Shown here in pieces: positions 47,817-64,000 of a stretch of 64,000 nucleotides of DNA (positions are counted from its first letter, which is position 1; every line of letters begins with the position of its first letter). The DNA is from a virus. Lineage: Duplodnaviria; Caudoviricetes. Under the pieces are notes generated by a model. The model was not told the DNA's origin. It ran no database searches and saw only the letters and a program-made list of their open reading frames with translations. Position numbers and translations under genes: made by a program. The DNA is taken from IMG/VR virus record IMGVR_UViG_3300027808_002535, positions 1-64,000 of that record; one strand, 5' to 3'.

Positions 47817-47829
47817 TTTTATTATTTTT

Positions 47830-47857: not shown

Positions 47858-47904
47858 GACTGTGTGCAGGAAGTGTGTTATAATAAGAACATATGCTATA
47901 AATA
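47856..47904 (+). promoter_or_regulatory. Sigma70 promoter followed by a full TATAAATA late motif
   Basis: TTGACT-N17-TATAAT (47856-47884); TATAAATA at 47897-47904. Confidence 0.65.
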
Positions 47905-47943
47905 AAATAGGTATATAATATATCAACCTTAAGGAGAATTTAA

Positions 47944-48210
47944 ATGAACTTGACAGATCTATCTACACTATTAGCCGCAATCGATGTCGCAGTTAAACGT
48001 GGTGCTTTCAGCGTACTAGAAATTGGTGCAGTTGGAGAAACAGCTACTAAGCTAAACAACTTCTTGTTAGAAGCTAAAAAGCAACAAGAAGAAGCCGCTG
48101 CCGCTGCCGCTCAAGCTGCCGCAGAAGGTCAAGCACCTACTGAAGCTGTATCAGAAGCACCTGCTCTGGAAGCAGAAGTTGCCGCTGAAGCACCTGTAGA
48201 ACAAGCCTAA
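47944..48210 (+). CDS. Hypothetical protein with Ala/Glu-rich tail
   Basis: SD AAGGAG; IDVA..RGAF...E...VG. Confidence 0.75.
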   Translation: MNLTDLSTLLAAIDVAVKRGAFSVLEIGAVGETATKLNNFLLEAKKQQEEAAAAAAQAAAEGQAPTEAVSEAPALEAEVAAEAPVEQA

Positions 48211-48223
48211 TTAGGAATTAACT

Positions 48224-48805
48224 ATGCCTAAGTTTACTAAACATGTAGGGCAAGTTGTTAGCACTGGTAAGAAATGTGTTGTTGTATTTAGAACAATACC
48301 CAATGACACATCTTCTTGCCTTGTTATACAAACAGAAGATATTCCAAATCTTTATCACGATGACTTAATCAACGCTGTTGAAAGTGATAGTGCCCAAGAA
48401 GACATGGATTTCTACAAATATGCTCAACGTATACAATTTCATGATGGAAGAACTATCTTAGAAGGTAGCCACCAAAGTGGTTGGATGATCAAATATCTAA
48501 CCAGTGAAATTATGATGTTGCCGACATTAGAACATAAAATTCTACTCAGTGATCTTAACCAAAAATTAGATCAGGCAGGTAGAACAACCAGTGGTGACAT
48601 TAGTCAACCAGCACCAGAAGGCAAGCCTGCTGGTATACTGGATGAAAAAGATATTGCTAATCAAATGCGTGGACAAGCTGCCTTCTTTCGTAAAGAAGCA
48701 GAACGGTTGCTTAAAGAAGCAGACAATTTAGATCCAGCGGCGACAATAGCCACGCAGATTGCTGAGGCTTCGAAGCCTAAGCGAGCATACAACAAAAAAA
48801 AGTAA
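48224..48805 (+). CDS. Hypothetical protein
   Basis: SD AGGA; KHVG..VVVFRT. Confidence 0.75.
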   Translation: MPKFTKHVGQVVSTGKKCVVVFRTIPNDTSSCLVIQTEDIPNLYHDDLINAVESDSAQEDMDFYKYAQRIQFHDGRTILEGSHQSGWMIKYLTSEIMMLPTLEHKILLSDLNQKLDQAGRTTSGDISQPAPEGKPAGILDEKDIANQMRGQAAFFRKEAERLLKEADNLDPAATIATQIAEASKPKRAYNKKK

Positions 48806-48821
48806 GTAAGGAACCCGAGAC

Positions 48822-49133
48822 ATGGCTATTAGGAAAAAGGATAGAAGTTTTGAAGAAATCCTTAAAGATGTTGTCATGGAAGAAGTTCCTATAGAATATA
48901 TAACACACATTCAACTTACACTTATAAATGGAGATGTTCTTGAATTCAATCAAGAAGAATTAGCGGGTTTAAAAGATGCCGGCGAAATTCTCAAAGCACA
49001 GGGTCTAGAGCACTTGCGTGATAATATTCAAGACATTGAAGTTTTTATTGATAGCAGTAAAATCAAGAATCGCGTCATAAAGTATGTACGTGGTATATTA
49101 ACCAGCCAATTTGGAGATGAGAGGCAGGCATAG
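48822..49133 (+). CDS. Hypothetical protein
   Basis: SD AAGGA; EEVPIEYI motif. Confidence 0.7.
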   Translation: MAIRKKDRSFEEILKDVVMEEVPIEYITHIQLTLINGDVLEFNQEELAGLKDAGEILKAQGLEHLRDNIQDIEVFIDSSKIKNRVIKYVRGILTSQFGDERQA

Positions 49134-49154
49134 TGCTAAATATATATGAATTAA

Positions 49155-49499
49155 ATGTTCATACTTATGTCAATAAAACCTGCTTGCCTTAATAAAACAA
49201 CAAGCCCATTTGTGAAATCAGACGGGTCACTTCTCCCATGTTGTTGGGCAAGTACGAGTTCTGACACTATTGAATTTCTAGGCAAAGAAAAATATTCACA
49301 ATTAAATTTATATCATCATACTGTTGATGAAATTTATTCATCCGATGCTTATAGATTAATAAAATCAAAAATATTAAGCGAAAATTCGTTTGATATATGC
49401 AAACGATGGTGTAATGCAGAGCGGCGATCACAGCGGCAAGACTACCTCATAGATTCATCGGAAATAGACGACTACATTAATAAGTATATTATTTTATAA
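49155..49499 (+). CDS. Stand-alone SPASM/twitch-like Fe-S domain
   Basis: PAC..DG.LLPCC..NL....DEI.....C..C pattern. Confidence 0.65.
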   Translation: MFILMSIKPACLNKTTSPFVKSDGSLLPCCWASTSSDTIEFLGKEKYSQLNLYHHTVDEIYSSDAYRLIKSKILSENSFDICKRWCNAERRSQRQDYLIDSSEIDDYINKYIIL

Positions 49500-49503
49500 T
49501 TTT

Positions 49504-50175
49504 ATGTATAAATTAAAATCTCGCGAAATAGAATTAGAACTAACTTCAAAATGTACACTACTATGCCCTGAATGTGCTAGAACTATTGATAAAGAAGAAA
49601 CTAAAAACAAATGGAATTTTGGTGAGTTAGATATAGAAATTATAGAAAAATTAGCCAGCCAAACTCCTAGCATAAGAAAATTTAATTTTTGTGGTGGTTA
49701 TGGTGATCCAATTTACCATAGCAGACTATTTGATATAATTGATGTTTGCCATCGTTATAATAAATCAATTCACATAGAAACTGCGGGCAATCTTAGAAGC
49801 AAAGAATGGTGGAATAAATTGTCGTTAATCCTCAGTGAACGCGATTCTATTTGTTTCAGTGTAGACGGATTAAAACATAGTAATCACATTTACAGAATAA
49901 ATTCTAATTGGGATAGCATATTGGATGCCATGACTATCATGAGTGAATCGTTGTGTCATACGAAATGGAAATGGATATTGTTTAAATCTAATCAAGATGA
50001 TGTTTTGGAAGGTTACAAATTAAGCAAAAAACTTGGTATTAAAAATTTTGAGCTAGTGGAAAGCGGTAGAATACCTCTAGGGAATGAGCCCACTAAATCA
50101 GTAAAGCAGATTTTGGCAGAGTTAAAAGAATATAAAGAAATACAAGGACTTGACAACTATATTATTTTAAAGTAA
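49504..50175 (+). CDS. Radical SAM enzyme (core domain only)
   Basis: CTLLCPEC, GGYGDP, FSVDG, YRIN. Confidence 0.88.
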   Translation: MYKLKSREIELELTSKCTLLCPECARTIDKEETKNKWNFGELDIEIIEKLASQTPSIRKFNFCGGYGDPIYHSRLFDIIDVCHRYNKSIHIETAGNLRSKEWWNKLSLILSERDSICFSVDGLKHSNHIYRINSNWDSILDAMTIMSESLCHTKWKWILFKSNQDDVLEGYKLSKKLGIKNFELVESGRIPLGNEPTKSVKQILAELKEYKEIQGLDNYIILK

Positions 50176-50200
50176 AATAATACTTTTAAAGAAGTTATAA

Positions 50201-51085
50201 ATGACACTAAGAAAAGAGATTGATTTTGAAAAAGATGTAAACTATGTTCCAGTATTGGATCATGGTTTTGTAGGTCTAGTAGATCATATGGGCAGTGACA
50301 GCGCAATCGTTCAAGCCGCTCGTGTTAGTTATGGTGCTGGCACAAAACAAGTTCAAGACGATAGAAACTTAATACGTTATCTAATGCGTCACGAACATAC
50401 AACACCTTTTGAAATGTGTGAAGTAAAGTTCCACATTAAACTTCCTATCTTTGTTATGCGACAACTTGTACGGCATCGTACTGCCAGCATGAACGAATAC
50501 AGTGCTCGCTATAGTGTACTCACAGATGAGTTTTACATTCCTGAGTTTGAACAAATTCAAAAGCAAAGCACAACTAACAAGCAGGGCCGTGAAGAAGCTG
50601 AGTGGGGCTTTGATGAAAAGCGTGGCGTACAACATGCCTTCCAACGTAGCTTTCATAATGCATACAAAGAATATGAGAGTTTGCTGGGCAAGGAAGATTC
50701 TGGACTGGCACGTGAGTTGGCTAGAAGTGTGCTTCCAGTAGGCGGATATACAGAATTGTATTGGAAAGCCAACTTGAAGAACTTTCTGCACATGGCTCGT
50801 TTGCGTATGGATCCACATGCACAATGGGAGATCAGAGAGTTTGCAGGTGCAATGTATGACCTAGTCAAACCATTATTTCCAGAAGCTTGTTCGGCATTTG
50901 AAGACTACGCTGTTAACTCAGTTAAGTTGAGTACTGGAGAATATCAGCTTGTCAAGAGTTTAATCAGCAAAGAAAAATGGGCTACTATGGTTACAAAATA
51001 CGGCAATGACGAAAAAGCCCTGGGTCAAGACGCAGGGCTTGGTGTTCGTGAACTAAAAGAGTTTAAAGAAAAATTAGGCCTGTAA
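50201..51085 (+). CDS. thyX: Flavin-dependent thymidylate synthase
   Basis: AARVSY, H.TPFE, RQLVRHRTASMNEYSARY, ELARSVLP, HAQWEIR; upstream TTGACA-N17-TAAAAT. Confidence 0.96.
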   Translation: MTLRKEIDFEKDVNYVPVLDHGFVGLVDHMGSDSAIVQAARVSYGAGTKQVQDDRNLIRYLMRHEHTTPFEMCEVKFHIKLPIFVMRQLVRHRTASMNEYSARYSVLTDEFYIPEFEQIQKQSTTNKQGREEAEWGFDEKRGVQHAFQRSFHNAYKEYESLLGKEDSGLARELARSVLPVGGYTELYWKANLKNFLHMARLRMDPHAQWEIREFAGAMYDLVKPLFPEACSAFEDYAVNSVKLSTGEYQLVKSLISKEKWATMVTKYGNDEKALGQDAGLGVRELKEFKEKLGL

Positions 51086-51628
51086 AGGATCAATGCTGAT
51101 TTCATTTATATGAAACTCACCGGGTTGTTCTAAAATCCATTTAATGTAACTAGCCGCACTCCTGATAGGAATTGTTTTCCTATCAGGGTGTTTTGCTTGT
51201 ACATTACTTAAACTACCAAAACTAATCAATGTGACTCTGGGGTTCTTTGCCCATACTCCAGACATGCCTAGACTATTAGCGTAATCTCGTAATGCTTTCT
51301 TTTCAGCATTATAAAGCCAATCTGTGGCTTTCATCACTCTGTCAGTGGTACTACCTATACAAATAATCAAAGTTTGTTTGCCTGCTAGTTTAAGTTTCTT
51401 GTATACCGCTTCGAGTAACAAAACTTGATTAAACTTCCATAATGCACTATTAATAATTACTGCATCATAATCAACACTCATCTCGGCAAATACTTGTTGA
51501 TTCTCTGCTTTGGTTAAATCTAAATTATGAGTTGTTCTACTTACAAATGTTAATTCATGTTGTGTTAACTCTAAATTTAGTGCCTCTGCTAGACCAAAAT
51601 CTGGATTACCTGATATTAATATTTTCAT
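51074..51628 (-). CDS. Short-chain dehydrogenase-like Rossmann protein
   Basis: ILISG..FGL, DL, IINSA, IGS, YNAEK (YxxxK). Confidence 0.7.
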   Translation of the reverse strand: MKILISGNPDFGLAEALNLELTQHELTFVSRTTHNLDLTKAENQQVFAEMSVDYDAVIINSALWKFNQVLLLEAVYKKLKLAGKQTLIICIGSTTDRVMKATDWLYNAEKKALRDYANSLGMSGVWAKNPRVTLISFGSLSNVQAKHPDRKTIPIRSAASYIKWILEQPGEFHINEISIDPLQA

Positions 51629-52791
51629 AAGAATGTTGTATCTCCTGGGAATAAAGGCAGTTTAGTGCCTGGCGCACGTTTTGGAATCTTACTGTCGGCA
51701 CTGCTCACACAACTTGTTCCCCCACAGGGCATTGGTTTATCGTATAACTTGAAGCCGGTTTCGATGTGTCCTAATGGAACTTCACTGCAACTGTAACTAC
51801 GTTTTACTGTGCCATCTGGTTCACGGATAATAATACTTCGATAGCCACTACTACACTCCCAACCATTGAAGTTGTTAAAGTTGAATGCGTTAAAACGTTC
51901 TGCCTGATCCATGAACCATGGATTTCCTTCTTTATCAACAAACTCAATTTGATAATGCGGATCGATGTCAACTTGTTTTTTACGACTAGGATCAGCTTTA
52001 TCAATTATAAAAGTAGGTTTTGGACGTTGAACAAGACCTGCTGCCAATGCTTTTTCTTCTGTGTAAGCACGTTGCGGCATACCATTGTGTAACTTGGCCA
52101 ACATCTCGGGTGTATAACCGTCTACTACTCTACTTGCTGTAGGATCGCTTTGCGGCTTGAGCGTAACGTTAATACCTCTATTATGAAAATACAAACTTAG
52201 ATCATATATCTCATTGAACTGCTCCGGAACCATGACCATGTTAATAGTTATCTGTGTGTCATACTCTTGGCATAACACCAACTTGTCGGCAAACTCTTCT
52301 ACCTTTTTATCAGTGTCCACATGTTCGCGATGGCAACTTGCTGTGATACTAGCACGGTGAAAATTCTTAACGGCTGGCACATACTTTTCTTCAAACCATT
52401 TAAGAGGCCGGCTCATGTTCGATGTCATATGTACACTGGTATAGTTTGTATTAGCCGCATCATTGTTTAAGTGATTAAGGATATCAATGTAAGCAGGATG
52501 GAATGTTGGTTCGCCACCACTTAGACTAAAGTGGAAACTATTAAATCCGTTTTCCCTCGATTGACGTTTGATCTCATCCACAGTATGTAACATCAACGGA
52601 GTTGGACGATGGTCCTTGGTATCACTGCGGGCATAGGGCCAGCAATAACTACAACGATAGTTACAATAACGTCCCAATAGCCACGATACGGTAAACATAT
52701 CGCGGTATAGCATTGTCCTTTGTCCGACTCTAACTAGATCCTTAAACGGAATCTTAGTAAAGTCATAATCACTGGTTTTTAAATCACTCAT
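51625..52791 (-). CDS. Radical SAM enzyme with C-terminal SPASM-like domain
   Basis: CNYRCSYC, GGEP, FNGWEC..G..DG.V.R..C..PC...C. Confidence 0.9.
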   Translation of the reverse strand: MSDLKTSDYDFTKIPFKDLVRVGQRTMLYRDMFTVSWLLGRYCNYRCSYCWPYARSDTKDHRPTPLMLHTVDEIKRQSRENGFNSFHFSLSGGEPTFHPAYIDILNHLNNDAANTNYTSVHMTSNMSRPLKWFEEKYVPAVKNFHRASITASCHREHVDTDKKVEEFADKLVLCQEYDTQITINMVMVPEQFNEIYDLSLYFHNRGINVTLKPQSDPTASRVVDGYTPEMLAKLHNGMPQRAYTEEKALAAGLVQRPKPTFIIDKADPSRKKQVDIDPHYQIEFVDKEGNPWFMDQAERFNAFNFNNFNGWECSSGYRSIIIREPDGTVKRSYSCSEVPLGHIETGFKLYDKPMPCGGTSCVSSADSKIPKRAPGTKLPLFPGDTTFL

Positions 52792-53014
52792 TTTGTTCGT
52801 AGATAAATTTTACGTCCTTGCCCGGGCCAACGTCGCTGGGCATGCCGCCGTATTGCTTGACATACCATTCTATGGCTGCGATATACCAACCTTGACTGTT
52901 ATGTCTACTTTCTTTGTTAAAAATATAGATATTGTCGTTGGTTGCTGGCATTGTACTTATAATGCGAGCCGCTTCTAATTGTAATTTGCGTAATGGAAGA
53001 TCTTGTATATTCAT
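52784..53014 (-). CDS. Small hypothetical protein inside the radical SAM operon
   Basis: 76 aa, coupled on both sides. Confidence 0.65.
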   Translation of the reverse strand: MNIQDLPLRKLQLEAARIISTMPATNDNIYIFNKESRHNSQGWYIAAIEWYVKQYGGMPSDVGPGKDVKFIYEQNE

Positions 53015-53970
53015 TATACATATTTATTTTTTGTTGCCATCAAATCTGGCATACACCAACAAGTGTTATAAGGACAAATTACTCCGGAAATAGGTAAGTT
53101 CATAATATTTGATTCTTTCCAATTACCAAAATCTTCGTCGGTGCCTATCATACATCCGCTGCCCCTGCGTATTGTGCCATTGGCATCAAGTGTTATTTTA
53201 TCAACTCCTATACCACAGCTCCAATCTTTAAATTTGTTTTGTTCATCCACAAGTATCTGGCCTGTGACTTCTTGTAAGCGTTGTTGCCTTAAATATGTAA
53301 AACTAGACTTATATATACTCTTTCTGGACTTGGCTACTTTTCTGTTTGCTTGTATATAGTCCATTTGTTCTTGTGTATATAATACTTTGCTATCTGCAAC
53401 AGCTTCGTATCTGTTATCCACTAATTTTAATTCCAAACTGGTAAACTCTTTGACATTGTTTAATATGTACTCTCGAGCTTCGAGTACCTTATCCCAAACT
53501 GCTGGCCAAGCAAGAACCAATATAGTCTTGTATTCATTGTCCAAAGCATTTATACTTTCTACAAACTTCTCCACGCTTTTGACCTGTGTAGGATGATAAC
53601 TAAACACCACCGAAGATACTTGTGTGCCTATTCTACGCCAATAGTCTTCAGGCATTACTCCATTGGTAATAAATTTAATATTACTATCTGGACTATTCTT
53701 TTTAATTATATCTATGGCTTCGGGTAGTTTTTTCCATATAGCAAGTTCGCCGCCCAGTAATGTATATTCGAGTCGCCGGCCTTTTCCATAGTGTGATTGT
53801 AACTCGCGTGTAGTGTAATCAATGCTGTCTAAACTGGGCCAACCAAAACTACCATCATGTATTATGCTGGGACAATATTCACAGGCATAGTTACATACGT
53901 TGGTCATTGTCCAATCAATGATTACCCAATCAGGATCTGCCTGTATCCTATCAAACAGTAAAGTTTTCAT
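53014..53970 (-). CDS. Radical SAM enzyme with C-terminal SPASM-like domain
   Basis: CNYACEYC, LGGE, TNG, FKDWSC..G..C..ICPYNTCWC. Confidence 0.88.
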   Translation of the reverse strand: MKTLLFDRIQADPDWVIIDWTMTNVCNYACEYCPSIIHDGSFGWPSLDSIDYTTRELQSHYGKGRRLEYTLLGGELAIWKKLPEAIDIIKKNSPDSNIKFITNGVMPEDYWRRIGTQVSSVVFSYHPTQVKSVEKFVESINALDNEYKTILVLAWPAVWDKVLEAREYILNNVKEFTSLELKLVDNRYEAVADSKVLYTQEQMDYIQANRKVAKSRKSIYKSSFTYLRQQRLQEVTGQILVDEQNKFKDWSCGIGVDKITLDANGTIRRGSGCMIGTDEDFGNWKESNIMNLPISGVICPYNTCWCMPDLMATKNKYV

Positions 53971-55150
53971 ATAATTCCGGGCAGACATCCCGTAGACTTT
54001 GATTGCGTTTATTATCTAATAATGATGTAAACTTTTTAAAATCATGCCAATTTGCACTTGTTTTTGTCATAGTAAGATTTTTTTTCATATTATCCAAAAA
54101 GAATTTATTAGCAGTATCGTATTTTTGTTCTACATACTCTATTTGTGCAAGAGCTTTTTGTTTAATACTATCTGGTGCTGTGGCAACATGCAAGTATTGT
54201 GGGTGTGTAAGTAATCTATATTCTATCCACTCGACGGGTCGTTTAATAAGAGGTTCTGCCCAGTCGTAAAACTCTTTTACATTTAGCATATTGTATATTT
54301 GATAGCTGGCATTGGGACTGAATAAAAAGTTCTTGTACTCGTTTCTAAATTTACATAACATGTCTATTTTACCTGTGAGTTCTTCCCAAGTGCATTGTTC
54401 CCCGCCTCTCATATATTCGAATAACTTGCCCGTGCCATCTACACTGATATTAATATTAACTGATTTTGCTTTGCGTAAACGTAATAAATGTTCTTCCCGT
54501 AGCAAACTACCATTGGTTGTTATACTCAGTCTAACATTCTTTAGTATACCCGAATTGTCCAGAACATCAAATACATCCAGTAAATCATTGTTAATAAAAG
54601 GTTCTCCGCCTGTTACAGTTATCATACGAAGATCTGTTAATTGTGGCAATAAGTTGGTGACAAATGTCATTAAGTCATTTCTATTCTTTGTGTAGTCTAC
54701 ATATTCTTCTCGCTGGAATCCATTGTCTCTCAGCAACTTATCGTCATTGATCCAACTGTTGCTGAACATGCTGTTGCACATTCTACATTTAAAATTGCAC
54801 AAATTACTGGTGTTTAAAAACAAATGATATATGTTATTTCCAGTTTTGCTGTTTTCAAAGTCTTTACTGTCCCATATATCACCATTCCACCAACGCTCAT
54901 TATTTTTCCAATTAAGGCGCTGGCTCGCCACGCCCTGTTTCTCTCGCTCGTGACAGGTATTACAGCCTGGTAGATTCCAAACTCCATCCACCATGTCTGT
55001 GCGTAATTGCACAAACTTTCCGTTGTCCCAGACATTTTGGTCTGTCATTAGTCCCATGGGCGTTGAACTCATCATGCATCTACTTATAAAACCAGCAGGA
55101 TGTGTAGCTATACTTACAAATGGAATTAAACAAACTTTATCAGGTATCAT
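53951..55150 (-). CDS. Radical SAM enzyme with N-terminal twitch/SPASM-like domain
   Basis: CLIPF..RC..CNTC; CNFKCRMC; TGGEPF; TTNGS; SVDG..YMR. Confidence 0.9.
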   Translation of the reverse strand: MIPDKVCLIPFVSIATHPAGFISRCMMSSTPMGLMTDQNVWDNGKFVQLRTDMVDGVWNLPGCNTCHEREKQGVASQRLNWKNNERWWNGDIWDSKDFENSKTGNNIYHLFLNTSNLCNFKCRMCNSMFSNSWINDDKLLRDNGFQREEYVDYTKNRNDLMTFVTNLLPQLTDLRMITVTGGEPFINNDLLDVFDVLDNSGILKNVRLSITTNGSLLREEHLLRLRKAKSVNINISVDGTGKLFEYMRGGEQCTWEELTGKIDMLCKFRNEYKNFLFSPNASYQIYNMLNVKEFYDWAEPLIKRPVEWIEYRLLTHPQYLHVATAPDSIKQKALAQIEYVEQKYDTANKFFLDNMKKNLTMTKTSANWHDFKKFTSLLDNKRNQSLRDVCPELYENFTV

Positions 55151-56309
55151 TTAGTTCTGGTACTAGCTTGGATATAGCTTCATCTCTACTTGCATCTAAA
55201 GTTGTTGTGTACTTGACAAAAGCAGGCCATTTATTATTCCAGTCTTCTGCCATCATGTAATCTATTAATGACGTCACCCTTTTAATATGCAAATAAGGTT
55301 GCAGTCGTTGTATTGCCAGCTTTTTTAAATTTTCGGGCAGGATGCGTACATTTAAATAATCAGGGTGATCCAATATGTTTAAGTGTATATCAGTTATAGA
55401 CAAGTCGGTGAGATAATCAAAAAACTTGTCTAATTGTAATACATTGTATACCTGTACTGTACAATGAACTTGAAGATCTATCTTGCCCTGTTTACTCATC
55501 TCAATAAAAGTAGCAAGATTCTTTTCCACTAAAGCCCAGCCTGTGGGATATCTAATATATCTATTGAGATCACCATGAGCATCTATGCTTGCATTGATTT
55601 TAATCTTCTTAAAATGTTGCCAATAATTCACTAGTTTCTTGGGCAAATTAGTACAATTTGTATTGTACTTTAAAGTAATGTTTTTAGCAAGATCTAATTC
55701 AATTAACTTATCAAATAGTTTATATTGACTCAATGCCAAAGTTGGCTCGCCACCTGTTAGATAAATCTCTTCAATGGTATTTGCTAACTTTAACAAGTTG
55801 ACTGCAACTATGTCGTCATTGGGCCAATCCATGCTACTGAGACGTTTGATTTCAGAGTCGGTTAACTGTTGTTCGACTAGATGCCATTCGTCTACCCATT
55901 GATTACTAGCATATGGATTACACATGCGGCATTTTAAATTGCACAAGTTGCCCAAGCGTATATCAATATATTGTACTGTAAGTTCAGGAGTTGCAGTAGG
56001 TTCATAGTCAAACATATACTTTTCATTCCAGGCTAATCTTGAACTACGTACACCGCTGTCTTCCTCTCTAAAGCAACGTTCGCACATTGCAGGCCTTTGA
56101 TCTGTTAGTAGTTCACTGCGAATTTTCTTCATAGTGTCACTGTGCCAGAAATCTTGCATGTCAGGATCTGTGATCTTATACGCTTTGTTTGTTCCATTGC
56201 GTAAAATAAAGTTTTTTCCAGGCGTGCTATTACAGCATACTCTTAGGTTGCCGCTGGCGTTGGTTGCTAAATGCATCCATGGTAGGATACAGAATGTTTT
56301 ACTTTGCAT
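55140..56309 (-). CDS. Radical SAM enzyme with N-terminal twitch domain
   Basis: CILPW..VCC..CERC; CNLKCRMC; TGGEP; YIRYP. Confidence 0.92.
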   Translation of the reverse strand: MQSKTFCILPWMHLATNASGNLRVCCNSTPGKNFILRNGTNKAYKITDPDMQDFWHSDTMKKIRSELLTDQRPAMCERCFREEDSGVRSSRLAWNEKYMFDYEPTATPELTVQYIDIRLGNLCNLKCRMCNPYASNQWVDEWHLVEQQLTDSEIKRLSSMDWPNDDIVAVNLLKLANTIEEIYLTGGEPTLALSQYKLFDKLIELDLAKNITLKYNTNCTNLPKKLVNYWQHFKKIKINASIDAHGDLNRYIRYPTGWALVEKNLATFIEMSKQGKIDLQVHCTVQVYNVLQLDKFFDYLTDLSITDIHLNILDHPDYLNVRILPENLKKLAIQRLQPYLHIKRVTSLIDYMMAEDWNNKWPAFVKYTTTLDASRDEAISKLVPELNDT

Positions 56310-57039
56310 TTAATTCTTCTAATAATAAATCGTAACTTCTACACATGACTTCTGCATGTTTCGATCCTGGTGCGCCGTGTATAATCATATGAATTCTAGG
56401 TTCTGATCCCAGGTGTCTAACACTGTGACGTCTACCTATGTCTATTGCTCTTGCATCGCCTGGTAACCACGGTATCAGTCCAGCATCCTCCATGACAAAT
56501 TCAACTCCGTCTGGATTATTAATGGCAATATTGTATGCTGCCATTTTACGAACTTCATAGTCAGCATGTGGTTTAATATAGCCACCCGGCAATAAAAGCA
56601 TAAACCTAACACGATCAAAATGGTTGAAATTCCATGTATTTTTTAACCAATCAACAGTTACAGGACAAACGTCTGCAATATCAGTCCACGTATACACTGG
56701 TTGTTCTGTGAAGTTATATGCTTTACTGCGCCAGTCATCGGTGGTATATTTGTCATAGCCGTGAATTACAAGACTATGCCAACCAGGATGCTCGTTGCCT
56801 CTGTGTTTTACAAACTCATCCATTAAAGATAAAGCTTCGGCTTCTATTTCTTTTTGTGGCAACGGCAAGTCCAACTTAAGACTAGGGCAGTTGCTTTCTT
56901 TTTCTATCCAGCCAAAGTAATCTTTCATTAACTGCCTATCTGATATCCAATTAGAAAACTTTTTAGGGCGTGTATTTAATGAACTATAGTGTGAAAAGTA
57001 TTTCCACTCGTCGAAAAATTCTGTTACTTCGTTATCCAT
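56299..57039 (-). CDS. Aspartyl/asparaginyl beta-hydroxylase-like 2OG-Fe(II) oxygenase
   Basis: RVRFMLLLPGGYIKPHAD..HSVRH...PRIHMI. Confidence 0.8.
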   Translation of the reverse strand: MDNEVTEFFDEWKYFSHYSSLNTRPKKFSNWISDRQLMKDYFGWIEKESNCPSLKLDLPLPQKEIEAEALSLMDEFVKHRGNEHPGWHSLVIHGYDKYTTDDWRSKAYNFTEQPVYTWTDIADVCPVTVDWLKNTWNFNHFDRVRFMLLLPGGYIKPHADYEVRKMAAYNIAINNPDGVEFVMEDAGLIPWLPGDARAIDIGRRHSVRHLGSEPRIHMIIHGAPGSKHAEVMCRSYDLLLEELNAK

Positions 57040-58424
57040 GGTAATATCTCCAGTGTTTTAACTCGGTGTAAGAATTGATCTGGATCGTCAAGTATTTGTC
57101 TAGGAGTTTCATTCCTCCAACTTGACTTGATTCCTGGCCTGTTTTGATACAATTGAAACGTATCCATGCCAGCATCAGAAAATTTAACAACAATATCTTG
57201 TTCTAGTCTATACCTGGATACTGCACTGAACAACCATGCAGTGTTCTGATAGTGCAATATATTTGTTAAATGTACATATGTTTTTTCACCGACATGTTTA
57301 CTTACAAGTACATTCTTTACTTGATTAACATTAAATAAATTACACGGCTCAAATATTACATTTAAATTTGGCCATACATTTTTAATGAAATCTTCTAAGC
57401 CCTGTGGCATCATTTCATTTATAATTTCCTGCATTCTATCTAAATTGCGATCAGCTTTCATCATAGGTACCAGGTCTAATTCTGTAAACAAGCTGTACAA
57501 AGTTGTTTTAAAATTTGAATAGTTGCAGTTGATTTCTCGAAGTCGTCGTTGTATTGCCAATGAAACTGGACTAAAATCAAAAACTGTGACTTTGCCGCCG
57601 GGTTTTAATCCAGCTGTGTATGCCATGAGCAACGGAGTTATACCTCCTGCGGTACATATTACTCCCTGCATGTCTGTGTCTAATAATTTTTCCGGAGGCG
57701 ACTCTGTATTTGCCGCAAAGTGACCATAGCCTTGTAAACTTTCTAACACGTCTGAAATTTTGGAATGAAAGTCTTTGGCAACTTCTGGATATATATAATA
57801 CTTACTTTCTCTCATAGACTCATTGAAACTAACTACAGAGCTGCCAGACTTTAATGCAGTGTCGATTATGTTCCAGCCAAATCGTTTTCCTGCGTAATTT
57901 TCAATGGCATTGCCCTGAGCGATCCAATGTGGCGTATATCCATCATGCCAATTTTCTTCACTGCGTATTGGTTTAACCGTGGACCATGGGATGCTAAATT
58001 CTTCTTTGCCTATCAATGGTTGACCATTTGACCGCCACCAATCCATGTTAATAATAAAACATTGATGGTGCAATTCGTAGAACTTATCGCCTTTGTCTAA
58101 TATATGTCCTGCAACTGCAAAGTTGGGATTATTTTCTAGAAACTTTGGAAGTACGTGATAAAAATTATCATTCTTGCTGAGATTAGTGCCCATGGCTACA
58201 ATCATCAAATATTTTAATCCGGCAACATCTGCCCATTTTAAAATAGCATCCGGATCTTTATTGCACGTTGTTGGAAGATAATAGTTTTCATTTTCCTGAA
58301 CCCAGTATTCCGTTATGTTTTTAGACAGCGCAAGCGCAGTAGAGTCCTTGATATAATCAGTTATGTCCAGCCATGCCATACCGAAGCCGATTTTATTTAA
58401 GTGATAATAATCGTAGTATGCCAT
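57024..58424 (-). CDS. Hypothetical protein in the radical SAM operon
   Basis: 466 aa ORF; GHILD..YELHHQC, HDGYTP motifs; function not recognised. Confidence 0.7.
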   Translation of the reverse strand: MAYYDYYHLNKIGFGMAWLDITDYIKDSTALALSKNITEYWVQENENYYLPTTCNKDPDAILKWADVAGLKYLMIVAMGTNLSKNDNFYHVLPKFLENNPNFAVAGHILDKGDKFYELHHQCFIINMDWWRSNGQPLIGKEEFSIPWSTVKPIRSEENWHDGYTPHWIAQGNAIENYAGKRFGWNIIDTALKSGSSVVSFNESMRESKYYIYPEVAKDFHSKISDVLESLQGYGHFAANTESPPEKLLDTDMQGVICTAGGITPLLMAYTAGLKPGGKVTVFDFSPVSLAIQRRLREINCNYSNFKTTLYSLFTELDLVPMMKADRNLDRMQEIINEMMPQGLEDFIKNVWPNLNVIFEPCNLFNVNQVKNVLVSKHVGEKTYVHLTNILHYQNTAWLFSAVSRYRLEQDIVVKFSDAGMDTFQLYQNRPGIKSSWRNETPRQILDDPDQFLHRVKTLEILPWITK

Positions 58425-58427
58425 TAA

Positions 58428-59735
58428 TTATTTTCCTGTAAATGTTTCTTTTCTTTTTACATCTAATATTTCATTGAATTTTTGAAACTTTTCAAAACTT
58501 ACGTCATATTTATTTGTATCTATACACTCGTCTATCCAGCTTATTGCGTCAGCTATATGTCTCTTATTATTGATTTCTCTAATAGAATTTTCTTGCATTG
58601 ATTTAAACTTTACAATCAACTTTGACTTTGCCGCTGTCAGTCTTTCTATTGGCAGAACATTTGCATGTAAAAAAGTAGGCCATTGTAAACGGCTTGTGTG
58701 CCACATTATGTCAAAGTCAGTGTCTATTGCTTCAAATGTTTCAACTAAGTACTCTACATTAAGTGCAGATATACAAGTACTTGCCTTTATGTAATCTAAC
58801 TTATCACCCAAACTTTCTTTGGACTGTTGTATATTTTCTTTTATGTCGTTCCATACAGAACCGTGTCTAATATAAGCATTAAGTTCATCGTAGCCATCTA
58901 TACTGATTGTTAAACGCACTGACTTGAATTTTTTCCAAAGATTCAATACATTACGTCCTTTCTTTGCTTCAAGATCTGTTAAGTTTGTACTGTATTTTAA
59001 AATAACATCGCTGGGATCCTTGATACGATCCAGCATATTGTAATGCAACGGATCCATTAACGGCTCGCCGCCAGCAAATTCAAATTCTTTGATATCATCA
59101 ATAATCTCATATAAGTCCTGCACAAATGTATTGTGTGTCTCAAATAAATTTAACACAGGTTTTTTACGCAAGTCATTGCTGTCGATGATATTATTAATAT
59201 ATTCCTGTTCTCCAGGTTCATAAATTTCTTTAACAGCATCCCAGTCTTGTAGCCACGGTGTACTGTCCTTGGGCCAACACATACGGCATTTCAAATTACA
59301 AAGATTGCTTAATTTAAACTCGACAATCGGAATATTCCATGGTGATTCTTTTGTGCGTTTATATGTTGCAACTAAATGTGCATACTCTTGTGTTCGCTCG
59401 TAATTTTGACTTTGTCTTAAACTGGTAATACCTTTGTCTTCCATTGACCAACAAGCATTGCAATGAGGATCTCTAATACCTGATATCAGATTATTTCTGA
59501 CTATTTTATATTTTTTATGATTCCAAAGATCTCGGAATGCTATATTTTTAATATCCCAGATTTTAGTACTTCGACAGCACAGTCTAAATTCTCCATTGGT
59601 TGTGGTACTTGTGTGTATAAACGGCATTATACAAAATGTCTTATCATTTACATCAAAACCATGCTGTTCCTTAAATAACTCGCTGGGTCTATAATCTAAC
59701 AGGAATTGTTTTCCTTTTCCCTTAGCTTCACTCAT
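58428..59735 (-). CDS. Radical SAM enzyme with N-terminal twitch domain
   Basis: FCIMPF..LCC..CNAC; CNLKCRMC; AGGEP; SIDG..YIR. Confidence 0.92.
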   Translation of the reverse strand: MSEAKGKGKQFLLDYRPSELFKEQHGFDVNDKTFCIMPFIHTSTTTNGEFRLCCRSTKIWDIKNIAFRDLWNHKKYKIVRNNLISGIRDPHCNACWSMEDKGITSLRQSQNYERTQEYAHLVATYKRTKESPWNIPIVEFKLSNLCNLKCRMCWPKDSTPWLQDWDAVKEIYEPGEQEYINNIIDSNDLRKKPVLNLFETHNTFVQDLYEIIDDIKEFEFAGGEPLMDPLHYNMLDRIKDPSDVILKYSTNLTDLEAKKGRNVLNLWKKFKSVRLTISIDGYDELNAYIRHGSVWNDIKENIQQSKESLGDKLDYIKASTCISALNVEYLVETFEAIDTDFDIMWHTSRLQWPTFLHANVLPIERLTAAKSKLIVKFKSMQENSIREINNKRHIADAISWIDECIDTNKYDVSFEKFQKFNEILDVKRKETFTGK

Positions 59736-60066
59736 TGCTGATCCTTAATTTCTTAATATTATTTAATTCTGCTTTACTCAGCTGTATGTCGGCGGCGCAG
59801 GTACAATTTTCTTTGGTACAAATAATGGGCTCAGTGGGCACCGAGAAGCCGGTGTGTATATCTCCTAGCTTGCCGCCCACCTTACATATGGCTCTCCAAA
59901 CATTGCCGTCATTGTCTATGGTCAAATTTTGAACGCCGGCCCAGCACATCCAACCTTTGAAATTGTTTGTTTCGTTGGCCAGTAAATCATTGACGTTGCT
60001 TTCTTCGCTGGTGCCGTCTTCATAATGAACTACTATGTTTGCCCAATTAGTTACTTTACTTGTCAT
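59728..60066 (-). CDS. Stand-alone SPASM-like domain
   Basis: FKGWMCWAG..DG.VWRAIC..IICTKENCTCAAD. Confidence 0.8.
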   Translation of the reverse strand: MTSKVTNWANIVVHYEDGTSEESNVNDLLANETNNFKGWMCWAGVQNLTIDNDGNVWRAICKVGGKLGDIHTGFSVPTEPIICTKENCTCAADIQLSKAELNNIKKLRISNE

Positions 60067-60764
60067 TTTTTCTTATTCAACATAAAATCAAGTTCTTCTT
60101 GAGTATAGTAGTCGTCTTTACATTTACCATGCGATGTTTTTAATCCACTTAATCCCGGAACTGCCCAGGTTTTGGTCTCAGGATCCAGCCTTGGTCTAAT
60201 TCTTCTAATTACCCAATGCACATCATTTTCATTCATAATGTCGATTATCTCATTTGCTTCCGCCATTTTACCTGGAAGATACATCAAGTGGGTGTGCAGG
60301 TTTTGATTGTCACGCTCTTTAACAAGTTTATTTAACTCTACGATAGTGTTAATTATCTTGTCGTGATATGCAAATTCAAAATGATAACTAAAAATATAAT
60401 AAGTAATATACGGTAAACTATCAATATATTTTTGAAGTGGAACACTGCCGTTAGTAGTGACACTAATTTTATTAATACCATTGTTCTTTATTATTTTAAG
60501 AATGTCGATAATTTTTGGATGCACAAATGGTTCGCCACCAGTTAAACTGATACGGCATTCTTTGCCCTGTATTCGAGCAACATCTGCTATCTGCTTGACT
60601 GTTTTTTCAATGACATCTAAACTTAGATGCTGACTTTCTCTGTCATGTATGTCGCTACCACAGTAGCTACAATCATAGTTACAACGTTTACCTAGATTCC
60701 ATTCAATGCGTAGCCATTTATCTTTAGGCGCATGATTGTCTTCTACCGCAACCAGTTTATTCAT
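60063..60764 (-). CDS. Radical SAM core domain (its SPASM domain is in the next ORF)
   Basis: CNYDCSYC, TGGEP, TTNGS, SYH. Confidence 0.88.
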   Translation of the reverse strand: MNKLVAVEDNHAPKDKWLRIEWNLGKRCNYDCSYCGSDIHDRESQHLSLDVIEKTVKQIADVARIQGKECRISLTGGEPFVHPKIIDILKIIKNNGINKISVTTNGSVPLQKYIDSLPYITYYIFSYHFEFAYHDKIINTIVELNKLVKERDNQNLHTHLMYLPGKMAEANEIIDIMNENDVHWVIRRIRPRLDPETKTWAVPGLSGLKTSHGKCKDDYYTQEELDFMLNKKK

Positions 60765-63309
60765 TCCAATAATCCGTTAATTCGGGTATAACATTCAATA
60801 CGTTTTCCTTTCGAATTTTATCCAACTCTACAGTGAATTGTTTGAATGTATTCCACTGTGTTTCGTGAATTCTATTAGATTCCAAACTACGAACTAATAC
60901 CTCAAAGTCGGGTATTCCATACAATTGATCTGCCATCTTTTTTCTTAGTTCAGTAGGTAGTACCAATGGACTCAGATACATCGGACTATTACATATAGTT
61001 TCGAATGCATTTGATGCACTAACTTTTTCAAATTTTTCTTCCCAACTTTTTAATTTTTTATGCAACAATTTTAGATTTAATAAATTATAGGCTTGCATAG
61101 TAACATTAAATCCAATCTCAACGTTGGGTAATTTATTATACATGCTTATTACATTTTCTAGTTCGTCAATAGTAAACTTACCGCCACGTATATAACTATA
61201 CAGTTCACCCGTTCCTTCCACACTGAACATTAAACGTACATTTTTAAATTTTTCAAGCATAGATAAAATCTTCGGATTAACGATCGTGCCATTAGTTGTG
61301 TACTGTAAAGTGATAAATTCATTTTTCCCATATTTGATGAGTTCTTCCAAGTAGGGCACATGATTTTTTGCCATCATAGGTTCCCCTCCCTTAAAGTCTA
61401 TACGCTGTATATGTTTCATATGTCTTATAGGTTCTAATAGACTACTTAATTCTTGTTGAACTATTACTTGTTTTTCTGGATTATTTTCCTTTTCAAATTT
61501 AGGATTAATTTTTGCCAACATCAAGTCTTCCTCAAACCATTGATTACTGGCCCATGAGCCACACATGCGACATTTTAAATTACATACGTTACTAAGATTG
61601 ACATCCATCTGAGTCCAAAATAATTTCTCTTTGGTCAAAGGACGGTTATAATCATAGTCACTGGGTATTCCATTTGTAAACTTTTTGTTAAACCATTGTC
61701 TTCTACTGTTTCCTATTAAATCCTCACGTTCCCAACAACTGCTACATTCTTCTGGTCTTTCTCCTTTGAGGAACTGATTTCTTATTTTTATAATTTTTTC
61801 ATTATTAATAAAACTATCTACAATATTATCCTTACTGGCTGTTCCCAGAGACCCTTTAAACTGACAGCAAGGTTTAATATTATCATTGGCACTTATTGCA
61901 AGGCCGTGCCATGGCATTTTACAGAAGCTTTCATACTTTTCGCGTCGATATTCATTAAAATAAATTTCATAGTTACTGTAAATTTCTGGATCTAATTGTT
62001 CGAGACTTTCACCGCGTATTTCATCTAGCTCGTATGTATATTTGACAAATTCTTTAGGACCTTGCTTTGCAAGTCCCTTAACTTCAATTGGATTGTCTAT
62101 TAAATCTTCCAGTAATTTTTTTATGTCATTGATATATCTTGCTTCTGTTATAGCACTTTTGCCATTTTGGTCGCCGCGAAAAAAATCATATTTGTCAATA
62201 AGATAATTTATTTGATCAAGACTCTTTTGCAGTATTTTTCCATTTAACCATTGTACGTGCAAAGTTTTGGGCCCTACTAATATTCTGTGCTCCAGGCTAT
62301 GACGATGTTTGCTACTTGTTACCGGCGTTTCTTTATCCCAGCCATAAAATTTAATTATCCATTCGATAAATTCTGCAACGTTTAATGCATTAATGGCTTG
62401 GAAGGTCCCGTTAATGTTCATTTTATAAACGCCTGGCCTCGGTTTGTCACACCAATTTCTAATTAATTCTGCCTTCTCTATAATGCCATCCCAATCTATG
62501 GCACCTGCACTTCTAATATAGCTGAAATATCCTCTAGTACCATCTAAACTAAGATTGATGTTGACATATTTAAAACCTTCTAATGCTTCTAGATGCTTTT
62601 CTGTGATAACGCTACCATTAGTAGTAATCATTAATTCAATTTGTTTGTCCAAACCAGCATCACGCAACATGCCCAGGAATTCCATGAATTGCGGCACCAG
62701 GAATGGTTCACCACCTAATATCTCCACCCGACGTAAATCCTTGCCATTATCCACTAATTCTCGCAACTGCTCTGTAGACAATGTATGTTTTGTTCTATCA
62801 AACATAGAACTTGTTCTAGCATAAGGACTGCCTGCGCCGCCTGATGCAAAGCCACGTTTTTTAAGTTTTTCCTCGTCACCTATCCATGCGTTGCTATATG
62901 CACTGCTACACATTCTACATTTAAAATTACACAAGTTATTAAAAGCAATATCCAAGTGTACAAGTTTATTGCCCGTTAGATTATTATCCCAATCAATATC
63001 TTCCCACCGATCGTCAATTACATCAAGATTCTGCCAGTGAGTACGTTTGCTGGTTACATTTTTATCTTCCTTGCTTTGACAATTTTGGCAACCCAGTGTC
63101 CATTCTCCGTTGCGTTGGGCTTTTCTTAGATCTTGAAATGATTCGTTGTCCCATTGTTTAATAATAGAACCACTGTTAACATCACCCATTTCTGTTTCGC
63201 TCATATGGCAGCGAACCATTTTTCCAGTAGCATGTATTGCAATACTACTAACAGGTAGCATACATATTGTAGGACTCAGTAGTTTATTTTTATCGCCTTG
63301 TTCACTCAT
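60757..63309 (-). CDS. Tandem double twitch-radical SAM protein
   Basis: Two complete units: CQNC/CNFKCRMC/GGEP and PCC..CSSC/CNLKCRMC/GGEP. Confidence 0.92.
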   Translation of the reverse strand: MSEQGDKNKLLSPTICMLPVSSIAIHATGKMVRCHMSETEMGDVNSGSIIKQWDNESFQDLRKAQRNGEWTLGCQNCQSKEDKNVTSKRTHWQNLDVIDDRWEDIDWDNNLTGNKLVHLDIAFNNLCNFKCRMCSSAYSNAWIGDEEKLKKRGFASGGAGSPYARTSSMFDRTKHTLSTEQLRELVDNGKDLRRVEILGGEPFLVPQFMEFLGMLRDAGLDKQIELMITTNGSVITEKHLEALEGFKYVNINLSLDGTRGYFSYIRSAGAIDWDGIIEKAELIRNWCDKPRPGVYKMNINGTFQAINALNVAEFIEWIIKFYGWDKETPVTSSKHRHSLEHRILVGPKTLHVQWLNGKILQKSLDQINYLIDKYDFFRGDQNGKSAITEARYINDIKKLLEDLIDNPIEVKGLAKQGPKEFVKYTYELDEIRGESLEQLDPEIYSNYEIYFNEYRREKYESFCKMPWHGLAISANDNIKPCCQFKGSLGTASKDNIVDSFINNEKIIKIRNQFLKGERPEECSSCWEREDLIGNSRRQWFNKKFTNGIPSDYDYNRPLTKEKLFWTQMDVNLSNVCNLKCRMCGSWASNQWFEEDLMLAKINPKFEKENNPEKQVIVQQELSSLLEPIRHMKHIQRIDFKGGEPMMAKNHVPYLEELIKYGKNEFITLQYTTNGTIVNPKILSMLEKFKNVRLMFSVEGTGELYSYIRGGKFTIDELENVISMYNKLPNVEIGFNVTMQAYNLLNLKLLHKKLKSWEEKFEKVSASNAFETICNSPMYLSPLVLPTELRKKMADQLYGIPDFEVLVRSLESNRIHETQWNTFKQFTVELDKIRKENVLNVIPELTDYWNE

Positions 63310-64000
63310 AATTTAATAGCCTCGCCATTTCTGGGAATGTTTTAATAAAATCTTCATTTCTGGATTTATCTATAAAGAATATTTCTTTTTTTCTTCTAGA
63401 ATCTATATCGTTTGACCATGCATCTATACTGTTCATATAATCTAGTATTTCATCTATAGTATTGTGATACTTTTCGTCAACGGTTGCTTTGGTATTTTCT
63501 AAATATGTTGTTAGTTCTGTCTTTATTTTTGCATTCAACGTTCTTACATTATTTGGACTATCCATTGTTGTTACATAATGCGGAGTAAAAGATTTTATAA
63601 AAGGCATACGTTCTAACTCTTGTAAAAAATTACCCAATGTTGCTATATTAAAAATATTAACCGTTGTATCAATAGTAGAATAGTAGTTGGATTTGCTGAA
63701 AAAATACTCCAGGTTATTTTTTACTTCTTGCCATACTGCACCACTGCGCTGATAATCAAATTTATCGCCAACGTCATCTATGCTTAAACTCCAATGCACT
63801 GCTTTGAATTTATCAAGTATTTTTTCTTGTTCGGCAGTTGGGATAACAGTTCCGTTTGTATTATACCACAGCCATATCTTACTTGCATCATAACGATTTA
63901 TGATTGCTTTCAACATTTCGTAATGTTCTTCGATCATCAAGGGTTCACCACCCATGATATGTATTACTCTGACGTTTTCGAACATATCGATGTTCTGCCA
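63302..64000 (-). CDS. Radical SAM enzyme (C-terminal part; 5' end outside the window)
   Basis: MGGEPL, YNTNGT, LSIDD..YQR.G..W, as in the neighbouring paralogues. Confidence 0.85.
   Translation of the reverse strand, partial: WQNIDMFENVRVIHIMGGEPLMIEEHYEMLKAIINRYDASKIWLWYNTNGTVIPTAEQEKILDKFKAVHWSLSIDDVGDKFDYQRSGAVWQEVKNNLEYFFSKSNYYSTIDTTVNIFNIATLGNFLQELERMPFIKSFTPHYVTTMDSPNNVRTLNAKIKTELTTYLENTKATVDEKYHNTIDEILDYMNSIDAWSNDIDSRRKKEIFFIDKSRNEDFIKTFPEMARLLNYE

Follow-up and report, generated by a model that had tools for sequence, protein, structure and literature searches.

A radical SAM array in DNA of an apparent freshwater jumbo phage: a candidate island for sugar tailoring

Introduction

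What might a bacteriophage make with fourteen radical S-adenosylmethionine (SAM) domains? Radical SAM enzymes are costly, oxygen-sensitive catalysts, and a phage of oxic lakes that keeps fourteen such domains under purifying selection is investing heavily in a product that has not been seen. The locus that raises this question begins at position 49,155 of the window analysed here, a 64,000-nucleotide stretch (positions 1–64,000) of the 74,911-bp IMG/VR record IMGVR_UViG_3300027808_002535, whose completeness according to CheckV is ~17%. The island is one coupled multi-enzyme tailoring operon, and the reading to which slightly better than even weight is given here is that its radical SAM enzymes tailor a sugar-bearing product. 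Comparison is made throughout with G001, a 172-kb relative (48% complete, 18 Radical_SAM matches) that is collinear with the record, and with an earlier note on the window, in which such an array had been described from the sequence and its open reading frames (ORFs).

Extent and Organisation of the Array

The earlier note had counted at least ten radical SAM domains from their CxxxCxxC motifs, including a partial paralogue at the window edge. All the listed motifs were found, once each in the ORFs at 49504, 51625, 53014, 53951, 55140, 58428 and 60063 and twice in that at 60757 (Table 1). These are nine motifs in eight ORFs, over 4,733 amino acids (aa), whereas 2,000 shuffles of the residues averaged 0.0375 and never exceeded 2; of the ten motifs seen when all six frames of the window were scanned, nine lie within 49.5–63 kb. 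Every motif-bearing ORF of the window also lies above the cut-off for Pfam Radical_SAM. The partial paralogue, 63302–64000, is the C-terminal portion of a 424-aa protein of NCBIfam family NF033640, with its CNLACRIC motif just past the window end. The array continues beyond this point; in the record as a whole, 13 ORFs spread over 25.8 kb contain 14 radical SAM domains, the last 11 kb adding three N-terminal-twitch enzymes, a second split enzyme and one fused enzyme. When the 13 ORFs (14 motifs) were scanned with PF04055, 12 of them exceeded 29.5 bits, and a 491-aa gene of type A (see below) beyond the window gave 27.7 bits on PF04055 and 418 bits on NF033640.

The tight coupling that had been proposed for the minus-strand genes holds, but the length of 13 kb given for the block was too short: it measures at least 23.8 kb (51074–74909) and runs up to the record end. 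Genes overlap at 21 of its 23 junctions, and the remaining two are gaps of 3 and 6 nt. Sigma-70-like and terminator-like sites were found at chance level only. Transmembrane segments are absent from all 27 island proteins scanned (maximum KD19 = 1.48); with no hydrophobic stretch of transmembrane strength, the chemistry and its substrate are therefore placed in the cytoplasm.

Three Families of Radical SAM Enzymes

Judged by sequence, the radical SAM enzymes form three families, here termed A, B and C, rather than the two architectures first described. Type A corresponds to NF033640 (N_Twi_rSAM). Its eight domains match the model from end to end, at 247.5–418.3 bits where the cut-off is 170; those that pass within the window are 53951, 55140, 58428 and both halves of 60757. 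The N-terminal twitch-like domain previously read from these proteins is borne out by the scores and by the four Cys that 8/8 domains keep, and Pfam SPASM matches fall on the type A N-termini. The residues invariant in 8/8 domains are C7, C25, C76 and C79 (twitch Cys), C123/C127/C130 (CxxxCxxC) and G186-G187-E188 (GGE).

Type B (51625, 53014 and 60063) has the CNYxCxYC motif, as had been seen. The SPASM-like C-terminus ascribed to it fared less well: the C-terminal domains are twitch-sized, with 4–5 Cys, and none has a Pfam SPASM match; in the case of 60063, the domain is a separate ORF (59728–60066).

The ORF at 49504, with the motif CTLLCPEC and its Cys domain in the upstream ORF 49155–49499, represents the third type. 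Type C comprises 49504, 69769 and 71219 (the latter two beyond the window), which share C(T/N)xxCP(E/Q)C and G(G/N)YGDP. Two of the three domains are split into separate genes. In the fused 391-aa form (71219–72394), the Cys domain follows the core and five C-terminal Cys are invariant. The split pairs have opposite gene orders, the Cys domain coming first in 49155/49504 (+) and the core first in 69769/69126 (−) (69126–70449; L015 7127–8450), and gene order has thus been permuted between paralogues. The split forms are retained in G001 and are therefore no assembly errors. Taken together, the two opposite splits and the fusion resemble a natural gene-level permutation series. A further split is seen in G001, where the counterpart of the 227-aa Cys-domain protein (69126–69809) consists of two ORFs, of 117 and 108 aa (L168 3043–3731).

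Among the radical SAM families of NCBIfam, NF033640 alone passes a curated cut-off. None of the cofactor equivalogs MoaA, PqqE, NirJ/AhbC/D, QueE, MftC and tungsten maturase reaches its NCBIfam cut-off, the best scores being 67.9 against 284 bits for MoaA, 56.5 against 380 for W_rSAM_matur and 19 against 381 for PqqE. With all equivalogs this far below, the array does not map to a single known cofactor pathway.

Selection and RNA Evidence

In 27 of 27 genes compared with those of G001, pN (nonsynonymous) is 0.015–0.35, while pS (synonymous) is near saturation at 0.48–0.90; the contrast between the two indicates purifying selection on every copy. The motifs are intact and none of the copies looks inactive, as far as sequence can tell, which speaks against the possibility, raised in the earlier note, that most might be. 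Contigs from RNA libraries (four metatranscriptome runs from four studies) are scattered over 46000–64000 at ≥95% identity, occupying 24, 17, 20 and 18 of 30 bins. A MoxR-type AAA ATPase followed by a DUF2201 metallopeptidase/VWA protein (45105–47816, +) lies under the region with the deeper RNA contigs.

Conserved Core and Exchangeable Accessories

When IMG/VR was scanned with the type A alignment, at least 701 stretches matched, of which at least 672 were confirmed and 77 loci kept. A genome scan confirmed at least 343 stretches, with 74 loci kept; 64 of these 74 are Bdellovibrionota by record label, and several genome loci lie on Mb-size contigs or whole chromosomes. By BLASTP, homologues of type B are present in 67 of the 77 viral loci, type C in 64, a methyltransferase-fold gene in 53 and the putative transferase GTa in 41. 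The recurring viral order is GTa (like 73238–73960), type B (51625), the 284-aa methyltransferase-fold gene (72391), type C (71219), type A (64569) and type B′ (53014). The same core is found in at least 23 of the 74 genome loci, all of Bdellovibrionota type, Mb-size contigs included.

Around this core, loci differ in whether they hold additional copies of type A, the hydroxylase and the 466-aa protein that goes with it, the pair 60063/58428, and the SDR-like (short-chain dehydrogenase/reductase-like) and 76-aa genes. Two SGNH-like proteins in the island were recognised by eye from GDS(F) and HF..H motifs, and have no Pfam match. The paralogues have low mutual identity (23–33% among the eight type A domains), yet each is kept across other loci, and the core enzymes are far better conserved. 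The paralogue diversity proposed earlier is thus real and old, and the non-core copies appear to behave as exchangeable accessories.

A tree built from 49 type B proteins places the 23 Bdellovibrionota rows in two groups outside the viral clade, and sharing between phages and Bdellovibrionota is therefore old. Only two 'bacterial' rows fall within the viral clade, and these come from non-Bdellovibrionota contigs of metagenome-assembled genomes that resemble phage DNA. Recent phage–host exchange as the source of the Bdellovibrionota link is rejected by this tree for the type B enzyme. In two Bdellovibrionota loci (L125 4799–6004 and L130 4096–5364), a thrombospondin type 3 repeat protein of ~400 aa adjoins the methyltransferase-fold core gene, as a possible acceptor or a mere neighbour.

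The core proteins other than radical SAM enzymes lie outside the window. GTa and its relative GTb have no Pfam match of their own, and their DxD is invariant in 27/27 sequences. In a model with a predicted local distance difference test score (pLDDT) of 85, residues 1–121 match GT-A/nucleotidyltransferase folds with VIA-align Z of 5–6.8, values below 8 that, according to the tool, may reflect a common arrangement. The family is large, with 6,590 of 8,000 scored candidates passing E 1e-5; among the best 120 homologues, eight carry a GT2-type Pfam domain (PF00535 or PF13641) and one a glycosyltransferase (GT) name. Most of the best matches are ~530 aa long, some two GTa or GTb lengths, and may be tandem fusions. 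On the strength of the model, GTa and GTb are likened to GT2-like GT-A-fold transferases. The 284-aa core protein is modelled with a class-I SAM methyltransferase fold (Foldseek E 3e-7). Profile searches of the PDB with GTa, GTb and the 284-aa protein gave nothing below E 0.019.

Sugar and Tail-Gene Context

The sugar context is clearest in G001. Upstream of GTb, the same strand carries one further copy each of GTa and GTb and two more radical SAM genes, together with genes for a carbamoyltransferase, a split transketolase-like pair, an RmlC-like 3,5-epimerase, three NAD-dependent epimerase/dehydratases and a GDSL protein; farther upstream lie genes for a tail-fibre-like protein, a virion protein of 2,851 aa and baseplate wedge proteins. 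The island is at least 25.8 kb long in the present record and ~52 kb in G001. The synteny beyond the window that had been suggested as a check is thus found in part: GT-like core genes are present in the record itself, and synteny with structural genes is seen in G001.

Bacterial loci add to this picture. In Halobacteriovorax marinus (L148), the four type A genes are interspersed with genes for two DegT/DnrJ/EryC1 sugar aminotransferases, one GT2, GDSL proteins and another radical SAM enzyme. In Poseidonocella sedimentorum (L106), type A genes adjoin genes for an NDP-hexose (NDP, nucleoside diphosphate) 2,3-dehydratase (E 3.5e-119) and a polyketide synthase (KS-AT). Other Bdellovibrionota loci have GT2 and SIS genes close by.

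Proposed Mode of Action

Substrate class, chemistry and target are reasoned here from the observed gene content, conservation, selection and sugar-gene context. The record would represent the downstream half of a large sugar-tailoring island. Its core, namely the GT2-like transferases, the protein with a class-I methyltransferase fold and, from each of the three families, one conserved radical SAM enzyme, would make a fixed modified sugar or glycoconjugate. This product would then be diversified by the accessories, namely the remaining N-terminal-twitch paralogues, the hydroxylase of cupin type with the 466-aa protein, and the two SGNH-like, the nitroreductase-like and the SDR-like proteins. 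In each radical SAM enzyme, SAM would be cleaved at the [4Fe-4S] cluster bound by CxxxCxxC, and the resulting 5′-deoxyadenosyl radical would take a hydrogen from an unactivated sugar C–H; the 4-Cys twitch cluster may handle the electron, as in BtrN. Possible outcomes include oxidation, epimerisation, dehydration, and C–C or C-methyl bond formation. The substrate would be cytoplasmic: an NDP-sugar, or else a glycan carried by something that the phage makes. Because the island comes after tail genes, the first candidates for the target are tail fibres or other proteins of the virion.

Several observations weigh against sugar tailoring. Sugar genes (BLASTP with seven queries) were found in only 12 of the 77 viral and 7 of the 74 genome loci, no NDP-sugar genes lie within the 25.8 kb of the island in the record, and the type-A-only arrays L155 and L163 lie amid housekeeping genes. 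Tail-gene linkage is visible only in G001, because the record ends (at 74,911) before that point. The best Foldseek E for GTa and GTb is 0.27, to be read with the low Z values given above. The closest solved structures of the radical SAM enzymes (8VPO, SkfB, anSME, viperin and NifB) are generic and include RiPP maturases (RiPP, ribosomally synthesised and post-translationally modified peptide), and a literature search found no assayed relatives of families A, B or C. Expression is a further point: RNA-contig depth over the cluster is low, at 1–6 compared with ~20 (up to ~21) at 46–49 kb, and these contigs carry no strand information and leave DNA carry-over possible, just as uncovered bins do not equal silence. 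The T4-type late promoter motif TATAAATA occurs four times in the window, where 7.3 are expected, and is absent from 62000–74911.

An extension of the sugar-tailoring reading is offered tentatively. The twitch radical SAM paralogues might constitute a combinatorial toolkit for 'radical glycan editing', in which each cassette performs a different C–H functionalisation of the sugar that the conserved core of GT, methyltransferase and radical SAM proteins has built, on tail fibres or virions in giant phages and on the cell's own surface in predatory Bdellovibrionota, with cassettes swapped to change or hide a recognition glycan. If so, the paralogues would form a novel class of radical enzymes acting on carbohydrates, and an invention common to two kinds of predators of bacteria.

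Alternative Products

Modification of a peptide or protein was the other arm of the earlier proposal. Here, cross-links, epimerised residues or C-methyl groups would be placed on a ribosomal peptide or on virion proteins, as by the RiPP maturases with SPASM domains. The top solved-structure match of the type A core is indeed 8VPO (E 8e-8), which we take to be cyclopropylglycine synthase, a RiPP maturase, with SkfB next, and there are weak matches to many NCBIfam peptide-maturase models; these scores are far under the cut-offs (for example, 33.7 against 340 bits), and none of the families has a 7-Cys C-terminal SPASM domain (type A has an N-terminal 4-Cys domain, type B 4–5 Cys and fused type C five). 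A small conserved ORF does lie inside the operon, at 52784–53014, and had been singled out as the only precursor candidate. It does not look like a precursor: the 76-aa ORF, the sole small ORF of at least 50 aa, is evenly conserved along its full length in 13/13 homologues, with neither Cys nor a variable core, and the Bdellovibrionota cassettes do without it. No PqqD or RiPP recognition element (RRE; PF05402) was found at E ≤ 0.01 in a sequence-profile scan of 28 cluster proteins, and no leader peptidase, exporter or transmembrane protein is present. A protein target would suit both the position of the island after structural genes in G001 and the Asp/Arg beta-hydroxylase, whose family by its name includes protein hydroxylases; the GT-like and methyltransferase-fold proteins of the core speak for another kind of product. 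Peptide or protein modification is accordingly judged improbable. The glycan arm of the proposal gains from the GT2-like core and the NDP-sugar genes of G001, Halobacteriovorax and Poseidonocella, and the RiPP arm is left with neither an RRE nor a precursor-like ORF.

A free small molecule, such as an aminocyclitol, a pseudo-sugar or another secondary metabolite used by the phage or the predatory bacterium against competitors or for host manipulation, is a rather unlikely product. Twitch chemistry of the BtrN type belongs to aminoglycoside biosynthesis, and the BtrN twitch domain (residues 167–239) aligns, marginally, to residues 15–92 of the type A profile (E 0.006). Every enzyme is predicted to be soluble, and the Poseidonocella type A genes adjoin the polyketide synthase and the NDP-hexose 2,3-dehydratase described above. 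There is also a precedent, in that a cultured cyanophage carries a radical SAM maturase with an inosamine amidinotransferase and a sugar aminotransferase, according to excerpts of PMC12801897. The island itself contains no recognisable exporter or self-resistance gene, it is joined to the tail module in G001, and the GT-like proteins in its conserved core suggest transfer onto an acceptor. Cassette-like turnover of accessories would, moreover, be typical of surface-recognition loci. Least probable of the three is hypermodification of nucleotides or DNA, with the GT-A/nucleotidyltransferase-fold and radical SAM proteins building a modified base or nucleotide that protects the phage genome. Known systems for thymidine hypermodification involve radical SAM enzymes, and the type A and B cores resemble the nucleotide-using radical SAM proteins viperin and MoaA (E 1e-7 to 2e-3), with the nucleoside-sugar decarboxylase BlsE also among the matches; the resemblance to viperin and MoaA is confined to the common radical SAM core and is far under the family cut-offs. 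FolE- and QueE-like genes occur in the window, and no match to TGT/DpdA (tRNA-guanine transglycosylase; PF01702) was found in the 74.9-kb record, which is ~17% complete. A thyX gene abuts the island; the enzyme makes ordinary thymidine monophosphate, the gene adjoins the island in 5 of the 77 viral loci, and, being convergent with the operon end, it is probably not part of the pathway. Finally, the same core is found in Bdellovibrionota chromosomes beside GT2, SIS and sugar aminotransferase genes.

Relation to Known Systems

The family closest to type A is NF033640 itself, with which it shares the N-terminal 4-Cys domain followed by a CxxxCxxC core and full-length scores above the cut-off. The present island differs from the family as catalogued in having eight anciently diverged paralogues, one pair of them fused, alongside two other radical SAM families. 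No paper was retrieved by full-text literature searches with the name or accession of NF033640, which is catalogued only, and among the titles listed for the description of the family, or for 'Bdellovibrio' together with 'radical SAM', none deals with it.

Among characterised enzymes, BtrN (2-deoxy-scyllo-inosamine dehydrogenase, the founding twitch radical SAM enzyme) likewise has a single twitch-size auxiliary [4Fe-4S] domain. Its substrate is of carbohydrate type, as is proposed for the island enzymes; the sequence similarity is marginal, and the twitch domain follows the core in BtrN, whereas it precedes the core in type A. The RiPP maturases 8VPO, SkfB and anSME share a radical SAM core plus an auxiliary Fe–S domain and are the best sequence matches of solved structure. 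In contrast to these, the island lacks an RRE and a precursor-like peptide, type A lacks the 7-Cys C-terminal SPASM domain, and the scores are generic.

Two reports on uncultured phages come close. According to excerpts of Zaragoza-Solas et al. (2020, PMC7029224), pelagimyophages have radical SAM cassettes in a tail-fibre-linked host recognition cluster, which is known from these and from cyanomyophages. The likeness to that cluster, as far as those excerpts describe it, lies in the position of the G001 island after baseplate and tail-fibre genes, and in GT-like genes and cassette-like variation across the 77 loci; the present phage is a freshwater jumbo phage whose DNA polymerase is closest to those of Phosso and Atu_ph07 (see below) and thus no pelagimyophage, and the excerpts do not dissect the radical SAM cassettes. 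In excerpts of Nishimura et al. (2017, PMC5332604), 12 radical SAM genes are mentioned for the genome of an environmental T4-like virus. Here, the likeness is that of a large uncultured myophage with unusually many radical SAM genes. In those excerpts the genes are treated only as Fe–S clients beside viral Fe–S assembly genes; the assembly families PF01521 and PF01592 have no matches in the present record or in G001. The main texts of PMC5332604 and PMC7029224, in the parts available, leave the radical SAM cassettes unanalysed, and supplementary tables may list the genes.

Families A, B and C are abundant (in the at least 672 viral and 343 genome stretches confirmed above), with no assayed member found. 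Their chemistry is within reach of experiment, given the fixed core and the cultivable holders Halobacteriovorax and Poseidonocella. Should the product prove to be a glycan of the virion or of a surface, phage host recognition would gain a further layer, and new carbohydrate radical chemistry would come with it.

Origin of the DNA

The B-family DNA polymerase (17095–19740) is 46–49% identical to those of Sinorhizobium phage Phosso and Agrobacterium phage Atu_ph07, both jumbo phages, and 45% identical to its counterpart in a 349-kb Vibrio phage. Near-identical DNA is present in many lake and freshwater metagenomes; 11 DNA runs from 10 studies, a count that leaves out three possible source runs, hold 76–97% of the sampled words. 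From this kinship and occurrence, the record is taken to be a fragment of an uncultured freshwater jumbo myophage.

Identity to G001 is 61–97% across the type A, type B and other minus-strand genes of the window, and 52–56% for the split type C pair. No close relative was found among cultured phages: the cluster had no megablast match in 50,697 phage records, nor had the type B core by tblastn, and type A reaches only 21–24% identity, in 41 records that include 39 Vibrio phages but no Campylobacter phage. For GTb, the sole match among cultured phages is in Ralstonia phage RsoM2USA (42%), where it adjoins a type-A-like gene and all genes are annotated 'hypothetical'.

Individual Genes of the Island

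The features within the window are collected in Table 1. The stand-alone Cys domain at 49155–49499 aligns to positions 4–97 of the NF033640 model, and the same split is present in G001 at 52% identity; its type C partner is a paralogue of 69769–70449 and of the fused 71219–72394, both outside the window. The most conserved core enzyme is the type B protein at 51625–52791, with 56–94% identity to 17 viral and Bdellovibrionota homologues and ~140 invariant columns. Elsewhere, the type B′ gene (53014–53988) usually comes after the conserved type A gene in a minimal cassette. With 55140–56309 as query, the best match is 42–56% identical in 14 viral loci (L017–L030). In the split type B enzyme, the Cys domain (59728–60066) has a weak match to the C-terminus of NF038073 and 97% identity in G001, and the core (60063–60764) 96% identity with pN 0.023. 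The 850-aa fusion is also found in G001.

For two of the accessories, functions had been suggested from the sequence. The hydroxylase-like gene (56299–57039) is confirmed by its Pfam match, and in other loci it pairs with the 466-aa gene (57024–58424). The latter has no Pfam or NCBIfam match; in the ESM Atlas, it matches viral 'hypothetical' clusters, and there is in addition a lead to a 688-aa cluster carrying PF05118 (score 0.84). The SDR-like gene (51074–51628), with homologues in 18 of the 77 viral loci, has no Pfam match, and its assignment goes no further than the weak NCBIfam matches given in the table.

Table 1. Features of the radical SAM island within the window, with supporting data.
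Position	Strand	Length (aa)	Feature	Supporting data
49155..49499	+	114	Stand-alone twitch/SPASM-type Cys domain; partner of downstream type C core	Pfam SPASM E 9.7e-6
49504..50175	+	223	Type C radical SAM core	CTLLCPEC, GGYGDP; Pfam Radical_SAM E 6.7e-8
50201..51085	+		ThyX thymidylate synthase	TIGR02170 200.9 bits vs cut-off 87.9
51074..51628	−	184	Short Rossmann/SDR-like protein; last operon gene	Weak NCBIfam SDR match, 27.5 bits vs 300
51625..52791	−	388	Type B radical SAM, C-terminal 4-Cys domain	CNYRCSYC; Radical_SAM E 7.7e-13
52784..53014	−	76	Cys-free protein; phage-specific accessory	pN 0.065 vs pS 0.74
53014..53988	−	324	Type B′ radical SAM, C-terminal Cys domain	CNYACEYC; Radical_SAM E 4.2e-8
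53951..55150	−	399	Type A N-terminal-twitch radical SAM	CNFKCRMC; NF033640 247.9 bits vs 170
55140..56309	−	389	Type A N-terminal-twitch radical SAM	CNLKCRMC; NF033640 377.3 bits
56299..57039	−	246	Asp/Arg beta-hydroxylase-like cupin oxygenase	PF05118 E 6.2e-10
57024..58424	−	466	Constant hydroxylase partner	
58428..59735	−	435	Type A N-terminal-twitch radical SAM	NF033640 305.3 bits
59728..60066	−	112	Separate C-terminal Cys domain of split type B	FKGWMC...C...C..C.C
60063..60764	−	233	Type B radical SAM core of split enzyme	CNYDCSYC; Radical_SAM E 6.5e-14
60757..63309	−	850	Fusion of two full type A units	NF033640 530.5 bits in 2 stretches; two CxxxCxxC
63302..64000	−	232 of 424	C-terminal part of type A protein; gene runs on to 64576	NF033640 152 bits cut, 281 whole

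Other Genes of the Window

The remainder of the window contains many metabolic genes. GTP cyclohydrolase I (PF01227), a HIT-domain protein and a QueE-like radical SAM protein (PHROG 2076) are encoded at 30000–33124 (+) and form a set of the 7-deazaguanine type, in which the QueE-like ORF has no CxxxCxxC. A Dps/ferritin-like protein (15857–16297), two tandem fatty-acid-hydroxylase-family proteins (26847–27827) and a PhyH dioxygenase (41101–41856) are all on the plus strand; the first of these is possibly an iron store for a phage rich in Fe–S proteins. On the minority strand, two adjacent periplasmic solute-binding proteins of the TctC family (PF03401; 36780–38687, −) make up an unusual auxiliary pair. 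At 6704–9364 (+), an 886-aa Amidoligase_2 protein lies beside a 590-aa protein with PHROG matches of the cytidylyltransferase type.

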